Notes: a model not told the origin generated them from the letters alone. 32,000 nt of DNA from Pararhizobium sp. IMCC21322 (GCF_030758295.1 NZ_CP132335.1:812412-844411), one strand, 5' to 3'; positions 3,142 to 30,875 are shown, counted from the stretch's first letter. A program made the numbers and translations.

Positions 3142-3462
3142 ATGGCAACCATCGGCACCTTCAAAAAGTCCGGCAACGAATACACGGGCGAAATCGTAAC
3201 CCTCAACGTGCAGGCCAAGAACGTCCGCATCGTCCCCGAAACCAGCCAGAGCAACGAGAACGCTCCCAGCCACCGCGTTCTGGTCGGCCGCGCCGAAATC
3301 GGCGCCGCCTGGTCGAAGACCTCCAACGAGGGCCGCGACTATCTCGGCCTCAAGCTGGACGATCCGAGCTTCACCGCTCCGATCTACGCCAACCTCTTCG
3401 ACGACGAGGACGAAGGTTATAGCCTCATCTGGTCCCGCCCCAACCGCCGCAACGGCGACTGA
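3142..3462 (+). CDS. DUF736 domain protein (copy 1)
   Basis: MATIGTFKKSGNEYTGEIVTLNV..NAPSHRV..GAAWSKTSNEGRDYLGLKLDDPSFTAPIYANLF..YSLIWSRP matches the DUF736 pattern and is paralogous to 7842..8180. GGAGAAATATC precedes ATG 3142. The listed start at 3082 lacks a ribosome-binding site. Confidence 0.85.
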   Translation: MATIGTFKKSGNEYTGEIVTLNVQAKNVRIVPETSQSNENAPSHRVLVGRAEIGAAWSKTSNEGRDYLGLKLDDPSFTAPIYANLFDDEDEGYSLIWSRPNRRNGD

Positions 3463-3476
3463 GCGACCAGCGAGAC

Positions 3477-3503
3477 GCCCCGTTCGGACATTCCGGGCGG
3501 GGC
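3477..3503 (+). terminator. GC-rich hairpin 15 nt downstream of the DUF736 stop codon; possible intrinsic terminator without a clear U-tract
   Basis: gccccgttcgga-cat-tccgggcggggc forms a 12-bp stem (two G-U pairs at RNA level) with a 3-nt loop. No T-run follows, so function is uncertain. Confidence 0.4.
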
Positions 3504-3595
3504 CGTCAGCGTGCCTAGGCGACCGAATCAGATCGCCTCACCGTTCGCAAACTACCCATAGAACTGAATATTTTACTCGCCAATATCGCAAAGAA

Positions 3596-3610
3596 CGACT
3601 ATTATAGTCG
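3596..3610. promoter_or_regulatory. Perfect 7-1-7 palindrome CGACTAT-T-ATAGTCG overlapping a TATAGT -10-like hexamer, 44 nt upstream of the XRE gene; candidate operator
   Basis: The palindrome was read directly from the sequence. It sits in the most AT-rich part of the 3463-3653 intergenic region, immediately upstream of the AGGAGG ribosome-binding site and ATG 3654. Confidence 0.4.
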
Positions 3611-3653
3611 TAGTACTGGCGTGCCTATTCGTGTCTGTAGGAGGTGATCATGC

Positions 3654-3908
3654 ATGATCACCGCCCGACAAACGCGGGCTGCGCGCGCGTTACTTGGTTG
3701 GACGCAGGAGACGCTCGCTGAAAAAGCCCTGGTATCACTGACCGCCTTGAAGCGCCTTGAGTCATCCAGTGACTTGAAGGTGTTCGAGTCGACTTTCGAC
3801 CAGGTCCGCCGCGCGCTGGAAGGTGCCGGTATCGTCTTCCTCAATTCCGGCCAAGGGGAAGGAGTGATGATTGTTCACGCCAAGGACGAAAGCGCGCAGG
3901 CGGGATAG
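3654..3908 (+). CDS. XRE-family helix-turn-helix transcriptional regulator (84 aa)
   Basis: ITARQTRAARALLGWTQETLAEKALVSLTALKRLE is a typical HTH_3/XRE motif. An AGGAGG site lies 9 nt upstream of the ATG. Confidence 0.8.
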   Translation: MITARQTRAARALLGWTQETLAEKALVSLTALKRLESSSDLKVFESTFDQVRRALEGAGIVFLNSGQGEGVMIVHAKDESAQAG

Positions 3909-3932
3909 GTTTCTTTATACCTTTTATGCGAA

Positions 3933-4301
3933 ATGCTACGCGTTTTCCACCGGTCGCCAGCAACATCACTTCCCGAAAAAAGCCTCGTCGATACGGTTAA
4001 CAACCGTCGCGCAGGCCGCTATCGATGGGGGATGGGGGTGACTACTGACAGACACGACGATGAGCCGCCACGTAGTGCAAGTCTGACGGCCTATGACCGG
4101 ACTCATCTGAAACTGTACCTGCGTCTGCTCGACGCCGAGGCGGATGGGGCGGCATGGCAAGAGATCGTACAAGTCCTGTTCGATATTGATCCCACTATCC
4201 ATCCCGACCGCGCCCGCCGCATGCATGACGCCCATCTTGCCCGCGCGCGCTGGATGACCGAACAGGGCTATCGCGATCTCCTTTGGGGCGCACGGCATTG
4301 A
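3933..4301 (+). CDS. Stand-alone DUF2285-like protein, a paralogue of the C-terminal domain of the downstream activator; the true start is possibly ATG 4032
   Basis: The C-terminal LKLYLRLLDAEADGAAWQEIVQVLFDID....ARWMTEQGYRDLL parallels LSLMIRAADGVACHASHRQIAAVLFGRH....IDGGYRDIL of ORF 4691..5191. The N-terminal 33 aa of the listed ORF look non-conserved. Confidence 0.65.
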   Translation: MLRVFHRSPATSLPEKSLVDTVNNRRAGRYRWGMGVTTDRHDDEPPRSASLTAYDRTHLKLYLRLLDAEADGAAWQEIVQVLFDIDPTIHPDRARRMHDAHLARARWMTEQGYRDLLWGARH

Positions 4302-4308
4302 CGCCGAC

Positions 4309-4329
4309 GTGATGCCGCTACGGCATCAC
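4309..4329 (+). terminator. Perfect 9-bp stem with a 3-nt loop (gtgatgccg-cta-cggcatcac), 8 nt after the stop codon of the small DUF2285 gene; terminator, attenuator or protein-binding palindrome
   Basis: Read directly from the sequence. No U-tract follows (cccttgccc), so it is not a canonical intrinsic terminator. Confidence 0.35.
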
Positions 4330-4422
4330 CCCTTGCCCAAAATCCGGCTTCTCAAACCAGCAATCTCTTGAAATCATGGAGGCTTAACTGCCCACCATGG
4401 CCTGCAGACGTTGGAGGAGAGG

Positions 4423-5191
4423 ATGGCGCTTGACCCAAACCAGTGGCGGTCCGATGCCGCCTACGCCTATCTGGACGACCTCAATGCCGAAGGTCTGGCG
4501 TGGGAATGCCTGCGCCGAAACACCGGCTATCAGGATGAATATGCCGCCGCCCAAATCGGGAAGATCGATGGTGATGCTGTCGACGACCTGATCAGGCGGC
4601 ACTGGGGGTTACGATTTCGCGACGCGTCCGGACTGCACTGCACTCGACGAAATCATCTATTGGTCACCGGTAATCGACACTGCGACGGTTATGTTGGCCG
4701 CAACATCCCCGACTATCGGTATGGTTGCCGAGCAATCGATCTTACTCGATCCTTCGTCGGTTCGCTCAGCCCCTGACGGATTGTATGCCCGCCATGGCGA
4801 TGGGCCATCTGCGGTCTATTCCGTGGTGTTGGGGCAACGAGAACTTGTTCCGACCGCAACAGTCATCGTCCCTCTTGACGCAGATAGTCCGGACCGCCTT
4901 GCCGCCGCTGGTCGGCTCTGGCGTGTGCTCAACGGCATAGCCGCACCGGACACACGCCTCACGCCCCAACGTCGCAAACGGCTCAGTCTTATGATCCGCG
5001 CCGCAGATGGCGTTGCATGCCATGCGTCCCATCGTCAGATCGCAGCCGTGCTATTTGGCAGACATCGCGTCGCTGCCGAACTCTGGCACGAGTCCTCGCT
5101 GCGCTACACGACTATCCGGCTGTGTCGGAACGGTCAGGCGATGATCGACGGCGGCTACCGCGATATTCTGCGTCACCGCAGACGAGCGTAG
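4423..5191 (+). CDS. fseA: FseA-like activator with an N-terminal DUF6499-type motif and a C-terminal DUF2285 domain, encoded in two frames. Segment 4423..4617 (frame 1) joins 4619..5191 (frame 2) through a putative +1 ribosomal frameshift. The alternative is a frameshifted pseudogene.
   Basis: Frame 1 gives MALDPNQWRSDAAYAYLDDLNAEGLAWECLRRNTGY...RHWGLRF and then an unnatural Cys/Arg/His-rich tail. Frame 2 is open from 4592 and reads ATRPDCTALDEIIYWSPVIDTATVMLAATSP... through to the DUF2285 end. The junction is CGA-TTT-C at 4612-4618. A GGAGGAGAGG ribosome-binding site precedes ATG 4423; the listed start at 4411 is TTG. Confidence 0.6.
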
Positions 5192-5368
5192 CCAGCCTCC
5201 ACGACGGAAATAGCGTCTCCGCCCTGCGTTCCGGCGTTTTTCCACCGGCGCGGTGCAAATTAGCGCTTCCCTTCTTCGCACCTGCCCGCGCCGGGCACGC
5301 TTCGCCATCGTGGCCTCCAATCGTCGCCGACCATCGGCAACGCGCTTGGACCCCACGGAGGCCTCACC

Positions 5369-5650
5369 ATGTCAGCAAATACCGCCCACCTGCCGCCACG
5401 CTACCTGAGAACGCCAGAAGCGGCGCACTTCCTCAGTCTGTCCGGGCGTACTTTGGAGAAGCATCGCACGTACGGAACAGGACCCGCGTACCGTAAGCTC
5501 GGCGGCCGGGTCGTTTATTCGGTGGAGGACCTGCAGGCCTGGGCGGACCGCGGCGCGGTCACCTCGACCTCCGATCCGCGAGGATCGGTCCTTCCCGCCA
5601 AGCGCCATGACGATGCGTCGCTCGCTCCAAGTGACGGCGAGCCGCGCTGA
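5369..5650 (+). CDS. Excisionase/MerR-type helix-turn-helix (HTH_17-like) DNA-binding protein, in the position of a recombination directionality factor or transfer-operon regulator
   Basis: PRYLRTPEAAHFLSLSGRTLEKHRTYGTGPAYRKLGGRVVYSVEDLQAWAD is the typical excisionase-family HTH pattern. A GGAGG lies 7 nt upstream of the ATG. Confidence 0.75.
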   Translation: MSANTAHLPPRYLRTPEAAHFLSLSGRTLEKHRTYGTGPAYRKLGGRVVYSVEDLQAWADRGAVTSTSDPRGSVLPAKRHDDASLAPSDGEPR

Positions 5651-5658
5651 GCTTTCTC

Positions 5659-6738
5659 ATGTTGCGCAAGTCACAATCCAGATCCGAGCGTGCCCAGCTG
5701 GAGCTTTTCTATGCTTCCAGCGCCGATCCTGCCCCGCGCGATGCGCAGGATTTGATGGCATATCCCTTCTTCAGCCTGTCCAAAACGCACCGCACCCGCC
5801 CGATCGACTATGACGTCGCAGGTGTCGTAATCCGCGTCGAAGCGGTCCCCGAGCACGGGATGGCGACGATCTGGGATGCGGACATCCTGATCTGGGCCGC
5901 AAGCCATTTGGTCGAGGCCCGCGATGCCGGGCTGCGGACATCGCGCCTGATGGCGGCGACGCCCTATGAAATCCTGACCTTCATCGGTCGCGGCGTCAGT
6001 TCGCGCGACTATCAGCGTCTCAAGGCGGCTCTCGACCGCCTACAATCGACCACCGTCGCGACGACCATACGCCAACCCGCGTCAGGGCGGCGCCACCGTT
6101 TCTCCTGGATCAACGAATGGGTCGAGCGCACCGACCACCGCGGCAAGCCTGCCGGTGTCGAGTTGATCGTGCCGGACTGGTTCTATCGCGCGGTGCTCGA
6201 CGATGCGCTAATCCTCACCATTGACCGTGCTTACTTCTCCCTCACGGGAGGGTTCGACCGCTGGCTTTACCGCGTCGTTCGCAAGCACGGCGGACGGCAA
6301 CGGAACGGTTGGCGTTTCGAGTTACGTCATCTCTATCTGAAGTCGGGCAGCCTCTCTCCGTTCAAACGCTTCGCGTTCGAATTACGCGATATCGTCCGCC
6401 GTCAGCCATTGCCCGGCTACGTCCTGTCGATCGAAGTCGAGATCGGCGGCAAAACGTTGCTCGCCTTCGAGCCTGCGAGCGTCCCGGCACCTTGTGGACA
6501 ATCTGTGGATGGCCTCGTGCTATCGGGAACCCGGCCTATCGTGCCATCGGGAACCGGAGTGTCGTGCTATCGGGAACCGAAACCGGCGCTAACACCCCGC
6601 ACCAAAAGAGCAAATCGCACCCTTAACTTAGAGTCTAACTCAGAATCTAACTCTTGTAGTGGGCGTGCGGCTGTGAACAACGCTGCCCCGGCAGACGACA
6701 TCGGAGACAATGATGCTTCTTCGGGAACTGCGTCATGA
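5659..6738 (+). CDS. repA: Replication initiator protein A (RPA family) with an unusual ~80-aa C-terminal tail encoded by repeat DNA
   Basis: RDAQDLMAYPFFSLSKTHRTRPIDYD...IWDADILIWAASHL...DRAYFSLTGGFDRWLYRVVRKHGG matches my recollection of the RPA family. The tail after ..LLAFEPAS is low-complexity and overlaps the iteron array. Confidence 0.8.
   Translation: MLRKSQSRSERAQLELFYASSADPAPRDAQDLMAYPFFSLSKTHRTRPIDYDVAGVVIRVEAVPEHGMATIWDADILIWAASHLVEARDAGLRTSRLMAATPYEILTFIGRGVSSRDYQRLKAALDRLQSTTVATTIRQPASGRRHRFSWINEWVERTDHRGKPAGVELIVPDWFYRAVLDDALILTIDRAYFSLTGGFDRWLYRVVRKHGGRQRNGWRFELRHLYLKSGSLSPFKRFAFELRDIVRRQPLPGYVLSIEVEIGGKTLLAFEPASVPAPCGQSVDGLVLSGTRPIVPSGTGVSCYREPKPALTPRTKRANRTLNLESNSESNSCSGRAAVNNAAPADDIGDNDASSGTAS
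6493..6658. other. Origin-like array: two DnaA-box-like 9-mers, three iterons, then an AT-rich block of three tandem 12-mers
   Basis: TGTGGACAA (6493-6501) matches 8/9 and TGTGGATGG (6504-6512) matches 7/9 to the complement of TTATCCACA. The iterons span 6516-6578. The tandem 12-mers ttaacttagagt / ctaactcagaat / ctaactcttgta occupy 6623-6658, the most AT-rich stretch of this gene. Confidence 0.5.
6516..6578. repeat. Three 16-bp direct repeats (iteron-like): cgtgcTatcgggaacc, cgtgcCatcgggaacc, cgtgcTatcgggaacc
   Basis: The copies lie at 6516-6531, 6540-6555 and 6563-6578, with spacings of 24 and 23 bp. Copy 3 is read in a different codon phase from copies 1 and 2 (VLSGT / VPSGT / CYREP), so conservation is at DNA level rather than protein level. 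Confidence 0.8.
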
Positions 6739-7256
6739 ACTCACCCGCAGCATTCAAGAAAGGTGCGCAACGCGAGGCGACTGACCGTCAGTCGGACGCC
6801 CTTACCCATGTCGAATTGATCTGGTTCGAGAAGCGAACCGAATACTGGATCCGCTTTGGCCAACAAGCCGGTGAGCGCGTCATCGATCGCCGTCGCCGCG
6901 TCGTCAGCTTCGCGCCCGGACAGGTTTTTGCGTTCGTCCGCTGGGCATCGAACGACTACGGCACTGTCCTCTCTTGCATCGATATCTTGCGCGCCGTCTG
7001 TCGCGGTGAGCCATATCAGACGCTGCCGTCCGTGCAGCCCGGCGGCGATGTTTTACTGACCATCACGGGGTGGCCGAAGGTTGAACGGGTGTTGCAGGTC
7101 ATCGATGCGATCGAGGCATTTGGCATCGATCCGGTCGATGTCACGCCCGACCATTGGCGGCACGTGCACAACCGGATGGCTGCACGCCAGACACCGCGCA
7201 CCTACACGCAAACCCGCCATGCCGCCTGGATCAAACGTCGGAGGGTGGGCCGATGA
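6735..7256 (+). CDS. DUF2840 domain protein
   Basis: THVELIWFEKRTEYWIRFG...FAFVRWASNDYGTVLSCIDILRAV fits DUF2840 as I remember it. The start overlaps the repA stop codon (ATGA at 6735-6738). Confidence 0.75.
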   Translation: MNSPAAFKKGAQREATDRQSDALTHVELIWFEKRTEYWIRFGQQAGERVIDRRRRVVSFAPGQVFAFVRWASNDYGTVLSCIDILRAVCRGEPYQTLPSVQPGGDVLLTITGWPKVERVLQVIDAIEAFGIDPVDVTPDHWRHVHNRMAARQTPRTYTQTRHAAWIKRRRVGR

Positions 7257-7795
7257 AACGCCGCGCATGGTCGCTTATCGGTGCTGCGGCAGTTGGCGCG
7301 ATTGCCTTTCCGGCGTTTGTCGAAACACCCGATACCTTCATCTGGAACGTCACGCCGTCCGCGCCTATCGGACTCTACGAAGTGCGACCTGTCGCGCAGC
7401 TTCAAAGGACCGAACTGGTCGTCCTCGAAGCTCCACAACCGCTCGAAAGTTTCCTCGCCGAACGCGGCTATCTGCCGCCGAATATTCCCCTCCTGAAGCG
7501 CGTCGTCGGTGTGCCGGGGCAGACCGTCTGCCGTATCGGTCGCACCATCACCGTCGACGGCACTGTGATGGGTAACGCTCAACAGCGCGACAGTTTCGGG
7601 CGTCCGATGCCGGTCTGGAGCGGATGCCAGCGCATCGCTCCAAATGAAATTTTTCTCATGAATCGCGACGCCGAGAACAGTCTCGACGGGCGATATTTCG
7701 GACCCGTTCCCGCCCATTCGATCACCGGCTTGGCGGTCCCAGTGTGGACCATCGAGCCCGGCACGGGCCGTTACCGCTGGCGCGCCGCCCAATGA
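7253..7795 (+). CDS. traF: Conjugative S26-family signal peptidase TraF
   Basis: An N-terminal signal-anchor (MKRRAWSLIGAAAVGAIAF) is followed by NVTPSAPIGLY, LLKRVVGVPGQ and NSLDGRYFGPVP peptidase S26/TraF motifs. ATG 7253 overlaps the DUF2840 stop codon (ATGA). The listed start at 7154 is an off-frame overlap. Confidence 0.85.
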   Translation: MKRRAWSLIGAAAVGAIAFPAFVETPDTFIWNVTPSAPIGLYEVRPVAQLQRTELVVLEAPQPLESFLAERGYLPPNIPLLKRVVGVPGQTVCRIGRTITVDGTVMGNAQQRDSFGRPMPVWSGCQRIAPNEIFLMNRDAENSLDGRYFGPVPAHSITGLAVPVWTIEPGTGRYRWRAAQ

Positions 7796-7841
7796 ACGGC
7801 ACGCCGAACCTCCCACCAACGCCAGATGAAAGGACATTCCC

Positions 7842-8180
7842 ATGGCACATATCGGACATTTCACGCGCACCAAAGATGGTTATCGAGGCCACCTGAAAAC
7901 GCTCACCCTCGACGCCGAACTCACCCTCGTTCCGGCAGAGCAAACCGACGCCGAGAATGCACCCGACTACCGGGTTCACATCGGTGCAGACATGGAAGCC
8001 CATGAAATCGGTGCAGGTTGGAAACGCACCGGCGAGAAGGCTGGCGACTATGTTTCGCTGGTGATCGATGATCCGGCTTTGCCGCATCCGATCCATGCGA
8101 ACTTGTTCCACTCGGTCAGCGAGAACGAAACCTATTTGCTGACCTGGAACCGGCCGCGCAAACGCCGCGAAAATGGGTAA
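7842..8180 (+). CDS. DUF736 domain protein (copy 2)
   Basis: MAHIGHFTRTKDGYRGHLKTLTL..NAPDYRV..GAGWKRTGEKAGDYVSLVIDDPALPHPIHANLF..YLLTWNRP has the same motif order as copy 1 at 3142..3462. Confidence 0.85.
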   Translation: MAHIGHFTRTKDGYRGHLKTLTLDAELTLVPAEQTDAENAPDYRVHIGADMEAHEIGAGWKRTGEKAGDYVSLVIDDPALPHPIHANLFHSVSENETYLLTWNRPRKRRENG

Positions 8181-8184
8181 GGCG

Positions 8185-8943
8185 ATGCGCAACGCTCATC
8201 ACCGCACGACTGCCGGACATCAACAGATCGTCCGGTTCGTCGCCCTCCTTCTCCTTTCCGGCCTGCTCGTCGGTGCCGCCCTGCCGTCCGTCACAGTCGC
8301 GCAGCGCGCTTCGATAGAGCGCCCGGCCGCCGATCCCTATGCCGCGCATATTGCAGAGGCGTCGCAGAGATTCCGCATCCCCGAGCGCTGGATACGCGCC
8401 GTCATGCGCGTCGAAAGCGCTGGCCGGGTGCGGGCGGTGTCCAGCGTGGGCGCGATGGGCCTGATGCAGATCATGCCAGGCACTTGGGCGGGACTTCGTA
8501 TCCGCCACCGACTTGGCCGCGACCCCTTCGATCCGCGCGACAACATTCTTGGCGGCACGGCGTACCTGCGCGAGATGTACGACCGGTTCGGTTCGCCCGG
8601 TTTCCTCGCGGCCTACAATGCCGGTCCTGGACGCTACGAAGATCATCTCGCGACCGGTCGGGCGCTGCCACGCGAGACGCGCGCCTACATGGCGACCCTG
8701 TTGCCGATGATTGGTTTAGCGTCGTCGAATGGCTCCTCGACAACCGTGCCCGCACCACCGGATTGGCGCGAAGCTCCGCTGTTCGTCGAACGCTCCGAAC
8801 GTAAATCGACTGCAAATCCCGTGCAGCAAGAACGCCGAACGTCTGGAGTCCCGCCGACGCCTCCAGCACGCAACCGCGACGCGCAAAGCGAGCAACCGGA
8901 CGGCATCTTTATCGCCCAGTCACGCGATGAGAGGACACCATGA
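8185..8943 (+). CDS. Lytic transglycosylase (SLT domain) with signal peptide; the alternative start is 8173
   Basis: AVMRVESAGRVRAVSSVGAMGLMQIMPGTWAGL...GGTAYLREMYDRFG..LAAYNAGPGRY carries the catalytic ES and the GLMQ and AYNAG motifs. Confidence 0.9.
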   Translation: MRNAHHRTTAGHQQIVRFVALLLLSGLLVGAALPSVTVAQRASIERPAADPYAAHIAEASQRFRIPERWIRAVMRVESAGRVRAVSSVGAMGLMQIMPGTWAGLRIRHRLGRDPFDPRDNILGGTAYLREMYDRFGSPGFLAAYNAGPGRYEDHLATGRALPRETRAYMATLLPMIGLASSNGSSTTVPAPPDWREAPLFVERSERKSTANPVQQERRTSGVPPTPPARNRDAQSEQPDGIFIAQSRDERTP

Positions 8944-9076
8944 TGATCGCAATCGCATTTCGCACTTTCGGAGGCAGCAGCGCAGTACGGCGTGTGTTGA
9001 GGGGAAAGGTCAGAAATTGGGAGAGGGGATGGCGAGATAAAAGGGCACGATGTGCGCCTCGGTTGTGGGGTGTGTT

Positions 9077-9140
9077 TTCAAAGGGTTATGCTTTGAATTC
9101 ACGAGGTGCGCTTGAACAGCGCAGCCTGCATCCATCCTGC
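9077..9140 (+). promoter_or_regulatory. Candidate oriT: two hairpins followed by an ATCCTG/C nick-type motif in the 245-bp gap upstream of the relaxase gene
   Basis: IR1 is ttcaaag-ggttatg-ctttgaa (9077-9097). IR2 is tgcgct-tgaac-agcgca (9107-9123). ATCCTGC at 9134-9140 matches the conserved nick core of RP4 oriT and Ti T-DNA borders (MOBP/VirD2-type relaxases). Confidence 0.5.
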
Positions 9141-9187
9141 TTTCCGAGTGATTTCAATACGTTTGCGCGATGTGCGGGTTTCGCACC

Positions 9188-10927
9188 ATGAGCAACGACG
9201 ATGATTTCCACATCCGCCCTGGCCGCATTCGGTCATCGTCAAGTCAGCGCGCGCGGCCCTTCGTTGCTCAGGCCTTAGCTGCAGCACAGCGTGCTGGCGG
9301 CAATGTCTCGCGCTCGGGAAAGATCACGCCGGGCAATCGCTCATATTTTGGGCGCGGCAAGCGTGCCAGCGTGCAGGCCAATCGCTGGCTAACCAGCAGA
9401 TCGCGCAACGCCGTCATCAAGACCCGTGTCGTTCGGCACAACGCTCGAAGCGCTCCCTTAGCAACCCATCTCACTTACCTGCGCCGCGAGGGCGTCACCC
9501 GTGATGGGGAGAAGGCAAAGCTGTTCGGTCCAGACATCGAAGAGATCGCTCCAAGCGAGTTCGCTGAACGGTGTGAAGACGACCGCCACCATTTTCGGTT
9601 CATCGTGTCGCCGGAGGACGCAGTAGAGATGACAGACCTTAAATCCTTCACCCGCGATCTGATGCGTCAGGCGGAAAAGGATCTGGGCACCAAACTCGAT
9701 TGGGTCGGTGTCGATCACTGGAATACCGAGCACCCACATATCCATGTCATCGCACGCGGGCGTGCCGACGATGGCGAAGACCTCGTTATTGCCCGCGATT
9801 ACATCAAGGATGGGATGCGTGCCCGCGCGCAGGATCTGATTTCGCAGGAGCTCGGCCTTCGCACTGACCGGGATATCCAGAATACCCTCGAACGACAGAT
9901 CGATGCTGAGCGCTGGACCAGTTTGGACCGACAGCTCGCGCGCGACGGTGAGCGCTCAGGCGTAATTGACCTCGCCCCACGTCGCGGCGGGCAGCTCGAC
10001 GGTCTCCAGGCTCTGAAAGTCGGACGCCTGCGCAGGCTGGAAAAGCTGAACCTCGCCGATCAAATTGGTCCCGGACAATGGGTGATGAAGGACACCGCCG
10101 AGACGACCTTGCGTGAATTGGGCGAGCGCGGCGATATCATCAAACGCATCCACCGCGGGTTGACCGAACGCGGCATCGAACGCGGTACATCGAGCTATGT
10201 CCTGGCAGGCGAAAGGATCGACCATCCCGTCATCGGACGGCTTGTCGATCGTGGTCTCGACGATGAACTCATGGGAACGGCTTATGCAGTGATCGACGGT
10301 GTCGATGGCCGCACCCATCATATCAAACTACCCCACATTGACGCCGCCGGAGACAACACGCTGGGATCGATCGTTGAGTTGCGCAAGTTCGAGGACCGCA
10401 GAGGCCGAGCACGGGTCGCGCTAGCCGTGCGGTCCGATCTGTCCATCGAGAAGCAGGTGAGGGCAACCGGCGCGACCTGGCTGGATCGGGAAGCCATCGC
10501 CCGGGAACCGAGCGCGCTTGGCAGTGGCGGATTCGGCGCGGAGGTCTCTGCCGCACTGGATCGACGTGCCGACCATCTGATCGAAGAAGGCTTGGCCAAA
10601 CGGCAAGGGCAATGCGTCATCTTCAATCGTAATTTGCTCAATACGCTGCGCCAACGCGAACTGACGAATGTTGGTGAGACGCTCGTGACCGAGACCGGGC
10701 TCCCCCAGAAGCAATCCGCGGCAGGCGAGTATGTGGCCGGCATCTATCAGCGGCGCGTTGCATTGGCCTCGGGCCGCTTCGCCATGATCGGCGACGAGCT
10801 CGGCTTCCAGCTCGTGCCCTGGACACCCTCCATCGAAAAGCATCTCGGCCAGCACGTCTCAGGCATCGCCCGCAGCAATGGCGGTGTCGATTGGGATTTC
10901 GGCCGCAAGCGCGGGATCGGGCTGTAG
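9188..10927 (+). CDS. Relaxase/mobilization nuclease (VirD2/MOBP-like N-terminus, DUF3363-type C-terminus)
   Basis: The start MSNDDDFHIRPGRIR is typical of the family, and the 3-His motif DHWNTEHPHIHVIARG is present. Its position directly upstream of traG fits. Confidence 0.85.
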   Translation: MSNDDDFHIRPGRIRSSSSQRARPFVAQALAAAQRAGGNVSRSGKITPGNRSYFGRGKRASVQANRWLTSRSRNAVIKTRVVRHNARSAPLATHLTYLRREGVTRDGEKAKLFGPDIEEIAPSEFAERCEDDRHHFRFIVSPEDAVEMTDLKSFTRDLMRQAEKDLGTKLDWVGVDHWNTEHPHIHVIARGRADDGEDLVIARDYIKDGMRARAQDLISQELGLRTDRDIQNTLERQIDAERWTSLDRQLARDGERSGVIDLAPRRGGQLDGLQALKVGRLRRLEKLNLADQIGPGQWVMKDTAETTLRELGERGDIIKRIHRGLTERGIERGTSSYVLAGERIDHPVIGRLVDRGLDDELMGTAYAVIDGVDGRTHHIKLPHIDAAGDNTLGSIVELRKFEDRRGRARVALAVRSDLSIEKQVRATGATWLDREAIAREPSALGSGGFGAEVSAALDRRADHLIEEGLAKRQGQCVIFNRNLLNTLRQRELTNVGETLVTETGLPQKQSAAGEYVAGIYQRRVALASGRFAMIGDELGFQLVPWTPSIEKHLGQHVSGIARSNGGVDWDFGRKRGIGL

Positions 10928-10946
10928 CGCCCGGAAAGGAAAAGAG

Positions 10947-12932
10947 ATGAACGCGACAAAAATTCTCTGGGGCCAGATCGTCTTCGTATCGATGATCGTT
11001 CTCGGTACGACATGGGCGGCAACGCAGTGGACAGCCTGGCGGCTGGGGTTCCAGCCGCAGCTTGGAATGCCATGGTTCGACCTGCTCGGATGGCCGGTCT
11101 ACTACCCGCCGGCGTTCTTCTGGTGGTGGTATGCCTATGACGCCTATGCGCCGCCGATCTTCATCGAAGGCGCGTTCATTGCCGCATCGGGCGGGTTCCT
11201 CGCCGTTGCCGTGGCGATCACCATGTCGGTCTATCGCGCCCGGGAAGCGGAGAACGTCGCCACCTACGGATCGGCCCGTTGGGCGGACCAGAATGAGATC
11301 AGGAAGGAGGGCCTGCTCGGCTCAGATGGTGTGGTGCTGGGACAACTGAGCCAAGAATATTTACGCCACGATGGTCCCGAGCACGTCCTGTGCTTCGCGC
11401 CGACGCGGTCCGGCAAGGGAGTGGGTCTCGTGATCCCGACGCTTCTTGCCTGGCCGGGCTCGGCCATCGTCCACGACATCAAGGGGGAGAACTGGCAGAT
11501 CACTTCGGGGTTCCGTGCAAAACACGGAACGGTGCTGCTGTTCGACCCAACCAATTCCAAATCGTCCGCTTACAATCCGCTGCTCGAAGTACGCCGCGGC
11601 GAATGGGAAGTGCGCGACGTCCAGAATATCGCCGACATCCTAGTGGACCCAGAAGGCTCGTTGGAAAAACGCAATCACTGGGAGAAGACAAGCCACGCGC
11701 TGCTCGTCGGCGTGATCCTGCATGTCCTCTATGCCGAGGAGAACAAAACGCTGGCCGGTGTTGCGGCCTTTCTCTCCGATCCGAAGCGCCCAATAGAAAC
11801 GACGCTCCGGGCGATGATGGCAGCAGCACATCTCGGCGATGCTGGCCCGCATCCCGTTGTCGCCAGTGCGGCGCGTGAACTCCTGAACAAATCCGATAAT
11901 GAACGCTCGGGCGTCCTGTCGACTGCCATGTCGTTCCTCGGCCTCTACCGCGATCCCGTCGTCGCCAAGGTGACGCGCCAATGCGACTGGCGCATCTCCG
12001 ATCTCGTCGAAAGCGAGCGGCCGGTTACACTCTACCTTGTCGTCCCGCCTTCTGACATCAACCGGACCAAACCGCTGATCCGGCTGATCCTGAATCAGAT
12101 TGGGCGGCGGCTGACTGAGGATCTGCAAAGTCACGCCAGGCGACACCGCCTGCTTCTGATGCTGGACGAGTTTCCCGCGCTGGGACGCCTCGACTTTTTC
12201 GAAAGCGCTCTGGCCTTCATGGCAGGCTATGGCCTGAAGGCGTTTCTAATCGCGCAGTCTCTCAACCAGATCGAGAAGGCTTACGGACCGAACAATTCGA
12301 TCCTCGACAATTGCCACGTTCGGGTGAGCTTCGCGACCAACGACGAGCGCACTGCAAAGCGCGTTTCCGACGCGCTCGGTACAGCAACCGAGATGCGCGC
12401 GATGAAAAACTATGCGGGCCACCGGCTGTCGCCATGGCTCGGGCACCTGATGGTCAGCCGACAGGAGACTGCGCGCGCCTTGTTGACGCCCGGCGAAGTC
12501 ATGCAACTGCCCCCAACCGACGAGATTGTCATGGTCGCAGGCATCGCGCCGATCCGCGCGCAGAAGGCGCGTTATTATGAAGATCCGCAGTTCCAGCAGC
12601 GTGTTCTGCCGCCACCTGCCCTTGAAAATACAACGGCTACGAAGACGGATCCCTGGACCGAAATGCCAATACCGGTGCAGCCGGATGGCATGGAAGAAAA
12701 TGAAAGCGAACAACGAGAGGACGAAGACACCACTGGCTCCGAACCCCGTCGTCAACCCGAGCTGGAACGAACGAACCCCACCCCACCGAAAGCGCCCGCA
12801 CAGAACGAGTTCGATCTCGATCCGCACGACGATGATGGCGAGGATCCCGCGCAACTGCGCAATTTGAATGCCCGCGTTCGGCAGGTCGCGCGTCAGGCGT
12901 CGATGAACCCTGACGACGGCATCGACATGTGA
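10947..12932 (+). CDS. traG: Type IV coupling protein TraG (VirD4 family)
   Basis: N-terminal TM segments are followed by Walker A (FAPTRSGKGVGLVIPT) and Walker B (LLLMLDEFPALG). GGAAAGGAAAAGAG precedes ATG 10947. The listed start at 10878 overlaps the end of the relaxase gene. Confidence 0.9.
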   Translation: MNATKILWGQIVFVSMIVLGTTWAATQWTAWRLGFQPQLGMPWFDLLGWPVYYPPAFFWWWYAYDAYAPPIFIEGAFIAASGGFLAVAVAITMSVYRAREAENVATYGSARWADQNEIRKEGLLGSDGVVLGQLSQEYLRHDGPEHVLCFAPTRSGKGVGLVIPTLLAWPGSAIVHDIKGENWQITSGFRAKHGTVLLFDPTNSKSSAYNPLLEVRRGEWEVRDVQNIADILVDPEGSLEKRNHWEKTSHALLVGVILHVLYAEENKTLAGVAAFLSDPKRPIETTLRAMMAAAHLGDAGPHPVVASAARELLNKSDNERSGVLSTAMSFLGLYRDPVVAKVTRQCDWRISDLVESERPVTLYLVVPPSDINRTKPLIRLILNQIGRRLTEDLQSHARRHRLLLMLDEFPALGRLDFFESALAFMAGYGLKAFLIAQSLNQIEKAYGPNNSILDNCHVRVSFATNDERTAKRVSDALGTATEMRAMKNYAGHRLSPWLGHLMVSRQETARALLTPGEVMQLPPTDEIVMVAGIAPIRAQKARYYEDPQFQQRVLPPPALENTTATKTDPWTEMPIPVQPDGMEENESEQREDEDTTGSEPRRQPELERTNPTPPKAPAQNEFDLDPHDDDGEDPAQLRNLNARVRQVARQASMNPDDGIDM

Positions 12933-24728: not shown

Positions 24729-24980
24729 ATGGCTAAGCTGAAACTCGGATCGATCGTGGATGATAAGCCGGTGAAACTTACCGTAGAGTTGCCTGCTGCC
24801 GTGCATCGCGATCTTGTGGCCTACGCCGAGATCCTGGCGCATGAGACCGGCGGAGCGCCGGCCGTCCCAGCCAAGTTGATCGCACCGATGGTTGCCCGGT
24901 TTATGGCAACCGATCGTGGATTCGCAAAGGCGCGGCGGATGTCTACGAAGACGGATCCTTCGCCGACATCACGTGCATGA
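24729..24980 (+). CDS. DUF2274 domain protein, the usual last gene of this trb operon type
   Basis: The sequence is MAKLKLGSIVDDKPVKLTVELPAAVHRDLVAYAEILAHETG...LIAPMVARFMATDRGFAKARR. The listed ORF 24375..24980 shares the frame but its N-terminal part overlaps trbI. Confidence 0.8.
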   Translation: MAKLKLGSIVDDKPVKLTVELPAAVHRDLVAYAEILAHETGGAPAVPAKLIAPMVARFMATDRGFAKARRMSTKTDPSPTSRA

Positions 24981-25899
24981 GTTCAGTCTCAGTTTGTTTG
25001 CTACGACCAATACCGTTTTGATGGGCCATTGCTTTGGCAAGACTCAGCATACGACGAAATGCAGGATTGTCGTTGCGTGGCGACCAAACCGCACAGAAGG
25101 GGAGTGTCTCGCCATCAAGCGGCCTGTAGACGACACCGGGAAATTGAGCCGCGATGGTCGACTCGCTCGTTAGAGTCAGCCCCCGGCCAAATGAGACGAT
25201 CTGCATCAGATTGTCACGACCGACACGGTGGCGCTCAATCGATGGTTGTACCCCCAAATCGGCCAGATGCTTTACCAAGAAGTCCTGGATTTCCGGGCCC
25301 GGATCGCTCTCGCTCACGACGAATGCCTCGCCGTATAGATCGCGCCAACGGAGGGAGGCTCGTTTCGCTAAATCGTGAGCACGCGGCAAAACAACGAACA
25401 CGCGCTCGGTCCAGAATTGAGAGGCGTCGCAGTCGGACAACATTGGTACACCCGTGACGAAGGCAACATCTAGGTTGTGGAGACGCACTGCAGAGATATG
25501 GTCAGACGGCGCCCCTTCGACAATATCGATCCGCACATCGCCGTATCGTGAGCAGTAAGTGTGTAACAACCGAGCAAGAAAACCAGACGCGAGAGACGAG
25601 AATATCCCCATCCGAATGGCTCCTCTTTCGCCGCGACCAATCAATCCGATACCCACCGCCGCATGTGAAATTTCGCTCAATGCTTGCTGGGCGTGACGGA
25701 CGAATTTCTTGCCAGCGTGAGTCAGAATGACGCCGCCGGAATGCCGGATGAAAAGAGCAGCTCCTATCTCGTCTTCGAGGTCACGGATACGCCTGCTCAC
25801 CGCAGATTGTTCGATCTCAAGTGTTTTCGCTGCTTGGCGAAAGCTTCCGCATTTGGATGCGGCAACGACGTAGCGCAGATGTCGCACCTCAATCCTCAT
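24943..25899 (-). CDS. LysR-family transcriptional regulator (copy 1)
   Basis: The gene starts at MRIEVRHLRYVVAASKCGSFRQAAKTLEIEQSAVSRRIRDLEDEIGAALF (LysR HTH). The listed 447-aa ORF extends upstream into the MFS gene in another frame. The 3' end overlaps the DUF2274 gene by 38 nt. Confidence 0.85.
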   Translation of the reverse strand: MRIEVRHLRYVVAASKCGSFRQAAKTLEIEQSAVSRRIRDLEDEIGAALFIRHSGGVILTHAGKKFVRHAQQALSEISHAAVGIGLIGRGERGAIRMGIFSSLASGFLARLLHTYCSRYGDVRIDIVEGAPSDHISAVRLHNLDVAFVTGVPMLSDCDASQFWTERVFVVLPRAHDLAKRASLRWRDLYGEAFVVSESDPGPEIQDFLVKHLADLGVQPSIERHRVGRDNLMQIVSFGRGLTLTSESTIAAQFPGVVYRPLDGETLPFCAVWSPRNDNPAFRRMLSLAKAMAHQNGIGRSKQTETELMHVMSAKDPSS

Positions 25900-25943
25900 C
25901 GGAATAGACCGCACCATCGAATGCTGAATATTGTGATCACTAT

Positions 25944-27098
25944 TCACGACGGTGCGGCTCCTTCCTTCTCCGTGGATGATACTGGCATGAGCGACACTAT
26001 TGCAGCGCACAGCAGTGCAATGGCCAAAACCGCGACCCATACAGCCGAAACGCCGTAAGCAAGCGAGGCAAGACCCGTTGCCGCTGCAACGCCCAGGTTC
26101 ATCGCGCTCATCGCGAAGGCCATCAGCGTACCGCGACGTTCGGCGGACAATGCAGCAATGTGCGTCTGAAGAGCGGGCGCACCGACACCGCCCAACAACG
26201 CCCAGGCCGCCAATGCTGCACAAACAAGGATGAGAGGCGCAATATCCAGTGCGTAAATCACTACAATCGCGACCAGCACAAAGCATAATGCGACGCGCAT
26301 GATGCGGCGTCCGGAACCGAACAGTCGAACTGCGGATGGCATTAAGAAGTTTCCGGCAAAAGTCAGCAATCCGAAACCGGCGTATATCAATCCGATCGTA
26401 CCGGTTCCGAGCTCGAACTGATCCCTCAGCCGCTCGCCAACCAGAGCAAACATTCCAATGGCACCACCAAGTCCAAGCCCCATCGCGATCAAGGCGCCGA
26501 TCGCGCCAGGCACAAAGAGCTGCCCGTCGTCGGGTAATGCACTTGTCTTTGTGGCCATGGACTTACGACTGAGAAAGCCAAAAAGAGCGATCGGGAGTGC
26601 AAGGACACCCAAACCCGCAAATGCCGATCGCCAAGATATATACTGAGTGGCCAATGCACCGATGCTGGGACTGAGGATTATGCCAAGCGTTAAACCCGAG
26701 GTCACAACTGCGATGGCTTTCGCGCCTTTGGCCTCGCCTTCATCGCCGGCCAACGCAAATGCGACAGGCAACATTCCGGCACTGGCGGCTCCCGTGACGA
26801 CACGCGTAAGCAACCCCAGTTCAAAGCTGTTGACCAACGAAGTCGCGATCGAAGCTATTGCGAACACCAGCGAGGCTGGCGCCAGTACTGTCACGCGCCC
26901 GAACCTGTCCGACAAGTTGCCGAAAATCGGAGCAAGCAGGGCCAGTGGTAAACTGTAGGCCGCCACGAACAGGACGACGCGTTCGGGAGGAACGCCGAGA
27001 TCACTACCGATCGGTGTGAGGATTGGACCAAGTAGAAATTCGTCAGCGCCGACGAGAAAGGCGATCAGGAATAGAAGTATCAGGCGGGGAAGTGGCAT
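25944..27098 (-). CDS. MFS transporter (12-TM type)
   Basis: From MPLPRLILLFLIAFLVGADEFLLGPILTPIGSDLGV..., the FGNLSDRFGR motif (MFS loop 2-3) and repeated hydrophobic helices are present. Confidence 0.85.
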   Translation of the reverse strand: MPLPRLILLFLIAFLVGADEFLLGPILTPIGSDLGVPPERVVLFVAAYSLPLALLAPIFGNLSDRFGRVTVLAPASLVFAIASIATSLVNSFELGLLTRVVTGAASAGMLPVAFALAGDEGEAKGAKAIAVVTSGLTLGIILSPSIGALATQYISWRSAFAGLGVLALPIALFGFLSRKSMATKTSALPDDGQLFVPGAIGALIAMGLGLGGAIGMFALVGERLRDQFELGTGTIGLIYAGFGLLTFAGNFLMPSAVRLFGSGRRIMRVALCFVLVAIVVIYALDIAPLILVCAALAAWALLGGVGAPALQTHIAALSAERRGTLMAFAMSAMNLGVAAATGLASLAYGVSAVWVAVLAIALLCAAIVSLMPVSSTEKEGAAPS

Positions 27099-27483
27099 GG
27101 TGTTTGCTCTCTTTGTTCGGGTGTGAACGAAGAGATGCCGCGAATGAGTCCATGCGGGTGGTGACAGCTTCACGCTTGCTTTCCAACTCGGCAATCAGCC
27201 GGTCGATTTGCTCACGCTTATGCTGCAAATCCGCTAGACCGCCTTCACATGCACCAGCGCCGTCATCGCTCAGGCATGGGGCCATGGCGAGTATTTCGCG
27301 GGTCGAAAAGCCAGTCGCAATCAGGTCTCGCACACGCTCGGCGCGCCGAAAATCGCTCTCGTTATAGACGCGATATCCATTACTCCCGCGCTCCGGATTA
27401 AGTAGACCGGTCGCTTCGTAATGGCGAAGAGTTCGCTGACTGACACCGAGGCGATTGGCGAGTTCCTGAATCTGCATTTGCAT
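27043..27483 (-). CDS. MerR-family transcriptional regulator with a Cys-x8-Cys loop
   Basis: IQELANRLGVSQRTLRHYEATGLLNPERGSNGYRVYNESDFRRAERVRDLIATGFS is a MerR HTH. The C-terminal CLSDDGAGAC resembles the CueR-type metal loop. The 3' end overlaps the MFS start by 56 nt. Confidence 0.85.
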   Translation of the reverse strand: MQMQIQELANRLGVSQRTLRHYEATGLLNPERGSNGYRVYNESDFRRAERVRDLIATGFSTREILAMAPCLSDDGAGACEGGLADLQHKREQIDRLIAELESKREAVTTRMDSFAASLRSHPNKESKHHATSPPDTSIPDRLSRRR

Positions 27484-27551
27484 CCCTTCCCGACCCTCTT
27501 ACGGGGTTAACACTAGCGTCAATGTCAAGCCTGATAATTGGAGTTTTAATA

Positions 27552-28481
27552 TCAAGGGCCCGCCATGGCTCGATGCGTCGAGCTGTTGCATAGACTATTG
27601 CGTCGCGCCATCACTCTGGCGAGACTGAGCAACCGGCGCAGCGCCGGATTATCATTCTTCGGTGACCAGATGGCGCAGAAGGGAAGTGCCTCGCCGGCTA
27701 ACAAACGATAGACGACGCGTGGGAACTTCGTACCGGTCGTTGCTTCGCTGGTGAGCGTCAGGCCCTTTCCCAATGAGACGAGCTGCATGAGATTATCACG
27801 ACCGACCGCGCAGTATTCGACGCTCGGATGGTAGCCGGGAAGCGACAAATGTTTGACGAGAAAATCGTGAATCTCGGGACCAGGATCGCTTCGACTGACG
27901 ATGAAATGGCGATTGCGGAGATCATTCCAAGCAATCTCGGCGAGGTTGGCCAACTTATCTGCTTCGGGAAGCACGACGAAGACGCGCTCCGTCCAAAGGT
28001 GCTGTCCCTCGCAGTCAGGCGGTGCAAAAGGCCCGGTAAGGAACGCGATGTCTAGCTTGAAATGGCGGATGGCTGAAAGATGCTCTCTGGGTGAGCCTTC
28101 GATGAAATCAAGACGAACATCGGTATGTCGTTGCTCGTAAGCACGCATTAGATCTGCGATAAATCCCGAAGAGATGGATGAAAAGATACCAACCCGGACG
28201 ATACCGGCATTGCCGCAGCCATGCGCATTTACCAGACTGGCCGCACGTTCGATCTGCCCCACGACGCGCCTGGCGTGCTCAAGAAAACCCTCTCCAGCAA
28301 AGGTCAGCTCGACGCCGCCAGAATGGCGGTTGAACAACGACGCCCCAAGCTCCTCTTCCAGGTCGCGGATACGCCGACTGATCGCGGACTGATGGACTCC
28401 GACAATGCTCGCCGCCCGCCGAAAGCTATGGTGTTCGGCAGCGGCAATAACGTAGCGGAGATGCCTCAGTTCAACTCTCAC
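27552..28481 (-). CDS. LysR-family transcriptional regulator (copy 2, paralogue of copy 1), probable GTG start
   Basis: VRVELRHLRYVIAAAEHHSFRRAASIVGVHQSAISRRIRDLEEELGASLF aligns position by position with copy 1. The GTG at 28479-28481 corresponds to the Met of copy 1. The listed start at 28628 would overlap the aldo/keto reductase gene. Confidence 0.8.
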   Translation of the reverse strand: MRVELRHLRYVIAAAEHHSFRRAASIVGVHQSAISRRIRDLEEELGASLFNRHSGGVELTFAGEGFLEHARRVVGQIERAASLVNAHGCGNAGIVRVGIFSSISSGFIADLMRAYEQRHTDVRLDFIEGSPREHLSAIRHFKLDIAFLTGPFAPPDCEGQHLWTERVFVVLPEADKLANLAEIAWNDLRNRHFIVSRSDPGPEIHDFLVKHLSLPGYHPSVEYCAVGRDNLMQLVSLGKGLTLTSEATTGTKFPRVVYRLLAGEALPFCAIWSPKNDNPALRRLLSLARVMARRNSLCNSSTHRAMAGP

Positions 28482-28504
28482 ATTACATTGGGTGGTATTT
28501 CCGT

Positions 28505-29539
28505 TCACACCACTGGTGGGTTGAGCCGGGCAAAACCTTCCTGTCTGCGGTAAGGGAAATAGGGATAGGGTGCCGTCACCACACTCGCTGCGTCGAGCTT
28601 GACAATTTGATCTGGTGTTAGCTTCCAACCGACCGCTCCGAGATTGTCACGAAGCTGTTTCTCATTTCGCGCGCCGATGATGACGGATGAGACGGTCGGA
28701 CGTTGCAGCAGCCAATTGATCGCGATCTGAGGTATGGTTTTGCCCGTTTCCTGGGCAACGTCGTCGAGCGCATCGACAATATCGAACAGTCGTTCGTCAT
28801 CGACCGGAGGGCCAAATTCGGCCGTCTGATGCAAACGGCTCCCTTCCGGTATCGGCTGGCCGCGCCGGATCTTTCCAGTCAGCCGACCCCAACCGAGCGG
28901 GCTCCAGACCATTGCGCCGACGCCTTGATCTACACCAAGAGGCATCAACTCCCACTCGTAATCACGACCCACCAGAGAATAGTAGACCTGATGCGCTACA
29001 TAGCGCGACCGACCATGTTTCTCAGACAAGCCCAGCGATTTCATGACCTGCCAGCCGGAGAAATTCGAGACGCCGATATATCGAACCTTTCCAGCATGCA
29101 CGAGGTCATCGAGCGTGGAGAGAACCTCTTCGATAGGTGTGCCAGCATCGAAAGCGTGGAGTTGGAGAAGATCGATATAGTCAGTGCCGAGCCGGCGGAG
29201 CGCATTTTCAACTGACCGGATCAGACGCGAGCGGGAAGAACCGGAATCATAGGGTCCGTCGCCCATCGGCAACGCCGTTTTGGTGGAAATGAGCACCTTG
29301 TCGCGCCGGCCCTTGATGGCTTCGCCGAGCACTTCCTCCGAAGCCCCGTCGGAATAGACGTCGGCGGTATCGAAAAGGTTGACCCCCGCATCCAGGCAAA
29401 TGTCGACAAGATGTCGCGCTTCTTTTGCGTCGGTGTCACCCCAAGCGCCAAATAGAGGGCCGGAGCCGCCGAATGTTCCCGCGCCGAAGCTCAATGCCGG
29501 GACTTTGAGGCCGGACCTGCCAAGAGAACGATATTCCAT
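28505..29539 (-). CDS. Aldo/keto reductase
   Basis: MEYRSLGRSGLKVPALSFGAGTFGG...NLFDTADVYSDGASEEVLGEAIKGRRDKVLISTK and ..IGVSNFSGWQ.. are AKR signatures. An AAGGA ribosome-binding site lies upstream of the ATG. Confidence 0.9.
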   Translation of the reverse strand: MEYRSLGRSGLKVPALSFGAGTFGGSGPLFGAWGDTDAKEARHLVDICLDAGVNLFDTADVYSDGASEEVLGEAIKGRRDKVLISTKTALPMGDGPYDSGSSRSRLIRSVENALRRLGTDYIDLLQLHAFDAGTPIEEVLSTLDDLVHAGKVRYIGVSNFSGWQVMKSLGLSEKHGRSRYVAHQVYYSLVGRDYEWELMPLGVDQGVGAMVWSPLGWGRLTGKIRRGQPIPEGSRLHQTAEFGPPVDDERLFDIVDALDDVAQETGKTIPQIAINWLLQRPTVSSVIIGARNEKQLRDNLGAVGWKLTPDQIVKLDAASVVTAPYPYFPYRRQEGFARLNPPVV

Positions 29540-29574
29540 GAGATATTCCTTTCAGATTTTTAAACAGGGACCAA

Positions 29575-30870: not shown

Positions 30871-30875
30871 TGCTC

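Follow-up and report, generated by a model that had tools for sequence, protein, structure and literature searches.

Two overlapping reading frames at positions 4423–5191 of a 32,000-nucleotide stretch of the 5.25-Mb replicon of Pararhizobium sp. IMCC21322 (NZ_CP132335.1:812412-844411; hereafter, the window), in which the regulatory module of a conjugative element of the Trb type is found, are annotated in RefSeq as two separate proteins, WP_371932478.1 (117 aa) and WP_306259951.1 (166 aa). The question raised by this locus is whether it encodes two proteins, the remains of a broken gene, or a single protein whose two parts are joined during translation. A preliminary description had favored the last of these, likening the locus to the gene for FseA (Msi172-Msi171) of the Mesorhizobium element ICEMlSymR7A. 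The analysis reported here supports the FseA-like reading. On the plus strand, 4423–5191 reads as one two-frame gene, which on sequence grounds is very probably an FseA-family activator gene with a conserved +1 frameshift site. The mechanism is already published and common in the family; the locus is an additional, misannotated member of that family and does not change what is known of recoding. All coordinates of the preliminary description hold when the sequence is read directly and translated, and the elements of the gene are the following:

4413–4422, plus strand: ribosome-binding site GGAGGAGAGG of the fseA-like gene, read directly from the sequence, immediately 5' of ATG 4423.
4423–4617, plus strand: part 1 of the fseA-like gene, in window frame 1, encoding the DUF6499 domain with its AWECLRRN motif and ending in ...RHWGLRF (PF20109, E 7e-22; 13/18 tblastn matches stop at 4617).
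4603–4608, plus strand: Shine-Dalgarno-like G-run TGGGGG, encoding W-G and ending 6 nt 5' of the slippery codon (TGGGG in 23/23 loci, window included).
4612–4620, plus strand: recoding site CGA-TTT-CGC (in 23/23 loci, counting the window, C or TTT-C comes after TTT).
4618–4776, plus strand: zero-frame tail and stop codon (TGA 4774–4776) of the Msi172-like, unshifted 117-aa product, from translation.
4619–5191, plus strand: part 2 of the fseA-like gene, in window frame 2, encoding a middle β-rich domain plus, at the C-terminus, the DUF2285 DNA-binding domain (PF10074, E 9e-30; stop TAG 5189–5191).

The frame-1 ORF (4423–4776) translates into 117 residues that begin with MALDPNQWRSDAAYAYLDDLNAEGLAWECLRRNTGYQ, reach RHWGLRF and then turn into a Cys/Arg/His-rich tail, as had been described together with the strong ribosome-binding site; among relatives this zero-frame tail is not conserved and ranges from 2 to about 52 residues. 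Frame 2, also as described, is open from just after TGA 4589–4591, reads ...YDFATRPDCTALDEIIYWSPVIDTATVM... and runs into the ORF at 4691..5191, with its C-terminal DUF2285 domain, up to TAG 5189–5191. Frame 2 has its earliest ATG, GTG, or TTG at 4691 (an ATG), and the overlap from the opening of frame 2 to the frame-1 stop (4592–4773) is 180 nt long. Within it, positions 4603–4620 read TGG GGG TTA CGA TTT CGC. If C4618 is skipped after TTT 4615–4617, GCG 4619 becomes the next codon, and the computed translation is the 255-aa product ...RHWGLRF-ATRPDC... that had been predicted. An unshifted ribosome would meet CGC, a sense codon in common use, in its A-site and would reach the stop after a further 52 codons. 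A search for a conserved RNA structure 3' of the site found none (alignment fold, -1 kcal/mol; window fold, z-score +1.5, no better than shuffles), which leaves only the G-run upstream and the nearby codons as possible stimulators. With the G-run 6 nt away and a common codon in the A-site, no cause for a ribosomal pause is obvious from sequence alone.

The two frames divide between them the two domains of a known family. In the profile searches, which the preliminary description had proposed as a check, PF20109 (DUF6499/Trans_reg_dom, E 7e-22) matches residues 7–66 in the frame-1 part, where the AWEFLRRN-type motif is present as AWECLRRN (residues 26–33), PF10074 (DUF2285/RovC_DNA-bd, E 9e-30) is matched over its full profile (1–107) in the frame-2 part, and the fused sequence carries both. 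The preliminary description took one chain of ~250 aa with both parts to be the normal form of the family. Among 1.84 billion representatives, searched exhaustively with HMMER, 1161 relatives were found; about 40 of the best 150 of these are single chains of ~250 aa spanning both domains. When single-ORF homologs are compared with the window by tblastn, the frame-1 match ends exactly at TTT 4615–4617 in 13/18 of them, and the frame-2 match starts at 4607 and continues the residue numbering without a gap through the shared Phe, which can be read as TTT 4615–4617 in frame 1 or as TTC 4616–4618 in frame 2. In an alignment of 44 sequences, the single-ORF consensus, WGLRFxxDPxxxAxxxxVFWxP, and the fused junction WGLRF-ATRPDCTALDEIIYWSP align gap-free. 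Columns that are invariant in the same alignment are E28, R31, R32, G62, W80, D195, R204, and Y245, among them R31/R32 in DUF6499 and D195 in DUF2285, the Arg and Asp residues of the interdomain contact predicted in the family. Furthermore, the 24 codons at 4619–4690, all of which lie 5' of any frame-2 start codon, are conserved with respect to the single-ORF homologs, with W80 and P69 invariant or nearly so. By these alignments, the slippery codon is the sole point at which homology switches frame, in the very position (CGA-TTT-CGC, 4612–4620) where the two frames had been proposed to abut.

Structural modeling of the fused product is consistent with a single folded protein. The AlphaFold2 model of the 255-aa sequence, computed with the 44-sequence alignment as input, has a mean pLDDT of 93 and a pTM of 0.90, and the residues that cross the junction (61–90) reach a pLDDT of 97. 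A Foldseek search with this model yields RovC of Yersinia pseudotuberculosis (6XZ5) as the sole significant PDB match, extending over 244 columns (E 3e-7, TM 0.60/0.70), and a fold relationship with RovC has been reported for FseA (PMC10359603). RovC is 16% identical to the modeled protein. It is reported to lack DUF6499 helix α-1, and what it activates is a type VI secretion system, not conjugation (PMC10359603).

The slippery site itself was compared across 22 related loci, comprising three from a genome scan (Erythrobacter, Rhodophyticola, and Aurantimonas) and 19 plasmid or chromid regions drawn from 75 tblastn-positive records, which together represent about 20 alphaproteobacterial genera and encode FseA-like proteins of 33–58% identity. 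In 22/22 loci the gene is split at the identical place, in the context TGG-GGN-YTN-NNN-TTT-C, where NNN is mostly CGA; two relatives (L007 and L024, two Agrobacterium plasmids) have TTTTTT, that is, TTT followed by TTT-C. Whether the site is kept at the nucleotide level, a point raised by the preliminary description, is hence answered in favor of conservation. As read from these comparisons, the abutment of the two halves at a site conserved in 22/22 relatives is far beyond chance. Codon choice at the site departs from that of the window's conjugation genes: the Phe codon is TTT in 23/23 loci including the window, against 26% of Phe codons in the background; the codon before it is CGA in 15/23 (window again included), against 6% of Arg codons; and the Gly codon is GGG in 10/13 of the first locus set, against 15% of Gly codons. 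The retention of rare codons at the site points to a nucleotide constraint on top of the protein constraint. Where the codon before TTT is not CGA, the residue itself changes (CAG, CAA, CAT, ACG, TGC). CGA, which would occupy the ribosomal E-site, may modulate slipping; we found no discussion of a role for CGA before UUU in the papers on the FseA frameshift (PMC4755241; PMC10359603).

The main alternatives to recoding can be weighed against this body of evidence. The split could in principle mark a pseudogene, or a 1-base sequencing or assembly error near 4618, in a former single ORF whose activator is no longer made. The abundance of single-ORF homologs among the best 150 representatives is in keeping with this, as is the observation that a single-base deletion sets one single-ORF gene (L013) apart from a split relative. 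Yet the same codon carries the split in all 22 diverged loci, which come from finished plasmids and genomes, and both halves are conserved at the protein level, with rare codons kept at the site. Three metagenome contigs of independent assembly (two from Logan runs, one from a JGI sample), 96% identical over 1290–1700 nt, likewise retain the identical split site, with 52–65 substitutions relative to the window and 0 gaps. Neither of two sequence patterns that the preliminary description had set against its own proposal was found, namely a change of frame at a non-slippery position or a simple indel separating the gene from close relatives, which differ by substitutions only. The split form is, moreover, the majority form: among 4709 curated proteobacterial homologs, about 61% have the conserved site beside a WGL encoded by UGGGGG, a sequence described as resembling a ribosome-binding site (Verdonk et al., 2023; PMC10359603). 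Loss of function or error is thus largely refuted by these comparisons and appears exceedingly improbable.

A further possibility is that no recoding takes place and that the locus makes two separate working proteins, one with DUF6499 started at ATG 4423 and one with DUF2285 started at an internal ATG (4691 or 4721), which act apart or assemble non-covalently. Gene callers and RefSeq annotate the locus in exactly this way, and association in trans is conceivable because the two domains are in mutual contact in the FseA model and DUF6499 is bound by QseM, which is a free-standing DUF2285 protein (PMC10359603). Internal initiation cannot, however, explain the conservation of codons 4619–4690, which precede every ATG, GTG, or TTG of frame 2 and map to the folded core of the AlphaFold2 model (pLDDT 97), and it leaves the nucleotide-level retention of TTT-C without explanation; in R7A, the unfused arrangement yields 0.8% of the rdfS-promoter activation obtained with the fused gene (PMC4755241). 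We regard two independently initiated proteins as very unlikely. The halves might also be joined by another route, either RNA-polymerase slippage on a T-run or a ribosomal shift elsewhere in 4592–4773, and both the longer TTTTTT run of L007 and L024 and the length of the frame overlap leave some room for it. Against polymerase slippage stands the T-run of the window, which is three T long, known transcriptional slippage sites being far longer T-runs than that. Against another shift position stands the conservation of WGLRF in frame 1 up to 4617 and of A/P-x-D/R-P in frame 2 from 4619. Such a route is hardly to be expected, and +1 slipping on TTT 4615–4617 remains the reading that we adopt.

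Two single-ORF relatives merit separate mention. L013 (331–1095, protein P0009), a single-ORF homolog, has kept CGA-TTT-CCC. Relative to the split gene of Haematobacter (L006), it shows a 1-base deletion about 35 nt further 3' that re-fuses the frames and leaves seven residues from the old zero frame, so that it has either lost its dependence on frameshifting secondarily or been misassembled from the metagenome. P0009/L013 was considered as a sign of a shift located further downstream and was rejected, being a split-type sequence with a secondary 1-base deletion. In protein P0016 (255 aa, called as a single ORF), GNSFDAIP stands in place of the WEFLRRNP of its relatives and corresponds to the +1 frame of the DUF6499 motif, which places a change of frame inside that motif; P0016 is probably a pseudogene or an assembly error.

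The genes that adjoin the fseA-like gene provide the context in which its product would act:

3654–3908, plus strand: Xre-type HTH gene, 84 aa (PF01381 HTH_3, E 3e-5), candidate QseC-like regulator of the antiactivator gene.
4038–4301, plus strand: qseM-like antiactivator gene, encoding a DUF2285 domain only, about 87 aa (PDB 7UQT QseM, E 7e-19; PF10074, E 1e-10).
5253–5281, no strand assigned: candidate FseA box, an inverted repeat (GTGCAAA-N15-TTCGCAC) upstream of the rdfS-like gene, proposed from positional conservation.
5369–5650, plus strand: rdfS-like gene (excisionase/RDF, HTH_17; PF12728, E 2e-8; PDB 8DGL, E 4e-9), presumed activation target.
5659–12932, plus strand: conjugation genes encoding RepA, DUF2840, S26 peptidase (TraF-like), lytic transglycosylase, relaxase (DUF3363), and TraG coupling protein (Pfam).

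The excisionase-type HTH gene that the preliminary description had placed at 5369 belongs to the HTH_17 type, and RdfS, the ICEMlSymR7A excisionase (8DGL), is the sole solved-structure match of its product. RdfS-like proteins are 73–91% identical across elements and FseA-like proteins 33–58%, the target being far more conserved than the activator. For the qseM-like gene, the mechanically called ORF opens at 3933 and the true start is uncertain; the match to 7UQT covers residues 40–117 of the ORF from 3933, and in metagenome relatives the product is called as 87–89 aa. The QseM-like protein has a computed net charge of -3, versus +11 for the DUF2285 domain of the FseA-like protein (residues 148–255, pI 11.6), and this predicted contrast matches the published one between a DNA-binding activator and a non-DNA-binding decoy. 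Between the window and its 96%-identical metagenome relatives (L015–L017), the qseM-like gene differs by 30–38 substitutions in ~300 nt, with 13–16 amino-acid changes, and the fseA-like gene by 7–9 substitutions in 769 nt; the qseM-like gene has either evolved much faster or been swapped by recombination. A small HTH gene occupies the position equivalent to 3654–3908 in four other loci (L006, L008, L023, and L027), and it is this position that makes the window gene a candidate QseC-like regulator. Across its ribosome-binding site and start lies a 13-nt palindrome, GGAGGTGATCATG/CATGATCACCGCC, whose arms meet without a spacer (window 3640–3665) and which might serve as an operator for autoregulation or form an RNA hairpin masking the start.

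The candidate FseA box was missed by a generic inverted-repeat search, because its arms are short, and emerged only from the alignment of upstream regions. In 11/15 loci the best inverted repeat is found at the equivalent position, with the end of its right arm 87–89 nt 5' of the ATG, and the arms co-vary between loci (GTGCGAA/TTCGCAC, TGAGGAT/TTCCTCA, TGGCGAA/TTCGCCA, and TGTCGAA/TTCGACA). The repeat of the window is imperfect, pairing at 6/7 positions, a score reached by 29% of shuffles, so that taken by itself it is not significant. The FseA box is described as two inverted hexamers 15–16 bp apart (PMC10359603), and the candidate at 5253–5281 fits that published wording. The window repeat lies 88 nt from the chosen start codon and has no obvious match to the 62–67 nt numbering of the published logo (PMC10359603). 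The intergenic maximum of conservation across 12 loci is a separate block, TTCGCCATCGTG (window 5301–5312, 57–68 nt 5' of the rdfS-like start), with consensus T.CGCCA..GTG, whose position does match the 62–67 nt numbering quoted for a hexamer (PMC10359603); a role as promoter element or as second binding site is conceivable. A scan of 3400–5700 for sigma-70 promoters and terminators gave results no better than shuffles.

In ICEMlSymR7A, the only system for which the shift has been demonstrated, msi172 and msi171 are fused through a +1 slip of tRNA-Phe from UUU to UUC in 4–13% of translation events, at a site with a conserved G-rich region upstream (PMC4755241), and the slip named in the preliminary description agrees with the literature. 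What we infer for the present locus, that is, slipping and its rate, DNA binding, activation, and antagonism by the QseM homolog, would proceed along the same lines. Most ribosomes starting at ATG 4423 would read on and produce the 117-aa DUF6499-only protein. In a minority, tRNA-Phe on UUU 4615–4617 would re-pair with UUC 4616–4618, GCG 4619–4621 would become the next codon, and a 255-aa protein in three parts (DUF6499, middle domain, and DUF2285) would result. By analogy with FseA of ICEMlSymR7A, this full-length protein would bind the repeat at 5253–5281 as a dimer, and the bound activator would turn on the rdfS-like excisionase gene together with the transfer genes that follow. By binding the DUF6499 domain of the activator, the QseM homolog encoded just upstream would restrain it. 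We infer from this scheme that the gene may hold back excision and transfer through the low yield at which its full-length product is translated; a role as a 'stochastic gate' would be carried over from Mesorhizobium R7A by analogy.

The likeness to FseA of Mesorhizobium japonicum R7A extends from the protein to its surroundings. Both systems combine DUF6499 with DUF2285, encoded in overlapping ORFs that are joined at UUU-C just past the W-G-L codons (UGGGGG), and homologs of QseM (7UQT, E 7e-19) and RdfS (8DGL, E 4e-9) adjoin the window gene. Also shared are an inverted repeat with a 15-nt spacer 5' of the rdfS-like gene and, downstream, genes for a TraF-like protein, a lytic transglycosylase, and a relaxase. 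The nearest Mesorhizobium plasmid homologs are 37–39% identical, R7A FseA itself having been compared by its published description. The two systems differ, however, in arrangement and presumably in input. The window gene lies outside a traI2 operon, which is TraR-dependent in R7A, and follows the HTH_3 and qseM-like genes. In the window, the HTH, qseM-like, fseA-like, and rdfS-like genes stand side by side in one orientation, whereas R7A has a divergent pair of qseC and qseM, with fseA at another place; in addition, RepA and DUF2840 genes separate the rdfS-like gene of the window from the traF-like gene. No match to the LuxR/LuxI family was detected in the ORFs that were scanned over the 32 kb of the window, which indicates that the upstream signal differs from the R7A paradigm.

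A second point of comparison is prfB, the gene for release factor 2, where the tRNA in the P-site likewise slips by +1 on a codon rich in U, downstream of a Shine-Dalgarno-like G-run. In prfB, a stop codon in the A-site senses the level of RF2 and the G-run lies 3 nt from CUU. The window instead has the sense codon CGC in the A-site and a G-run spacing of 6 nt, and no prfB-like autoregulatory logic is therefore evident.

In elements that, like this one, have no quorum-sensing genes nearby, the abundant unshifted DUF6499-only product might itself serve as a decoy for the QseM-like antiactivator. A fixed ratio of shifted to unshifted product, together with a fast-diverging qseM, would then form a titration switch that sets the donor fraction, and the CGA before UUU seen in 15/23 loci would tune that ratio. 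We offer this idea as speculation and think it unlikely.

The practical consequence of the split concerns annotation. NCBIfam release 20 contains no model matching the fused FseA-like, the QseM-like, or the RdfS-like protein (the ORFs at 3654–3905, 4038–4298, and 5369–5647 were also scanned), and PGAP consequently splits the gene and assigns generic names. Annotated as two unrelated small proteins and matched by no NCBIfam model, the putative master transfer activator of the element becomes invisible. Its recognition assigns an element from a marine Pararhizobium to the regulatory family of FseA/QseM/RdfS and adds a further example of a compact layout free of quorum-sensing genes (HTH gene, qseM, fseA, and rdfS), which would be a simpler system for addressing how a low-efficiency frameshift limits horizontal gene transfer.

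The regulatory module is embedded in an otherwise recognizable conjugative element. Genes for Toprim/DUF7146, YAcAr, DUF736, and HTH_3 proteins come before the qseM-like, fseA-like, and rdfS-like genes, the genes at 5659–12932 are probably co-expressed, and Trb type IV secretion genes follow TraG up to about 24.7 kb (all by Pfam); an equivalent gene order is annotated in related plasmids. The 32-kb window holds no tRNA gene, and its ORFs scanned against Pfam include no match to an integrase. Beyond the Trb genes, 24943–32000 encodes on the minus strand two LysR regulators, two MFS transporters, an aldo-keto reductase, and a GDSL lipase, which represent either cargo or the flank of the element.
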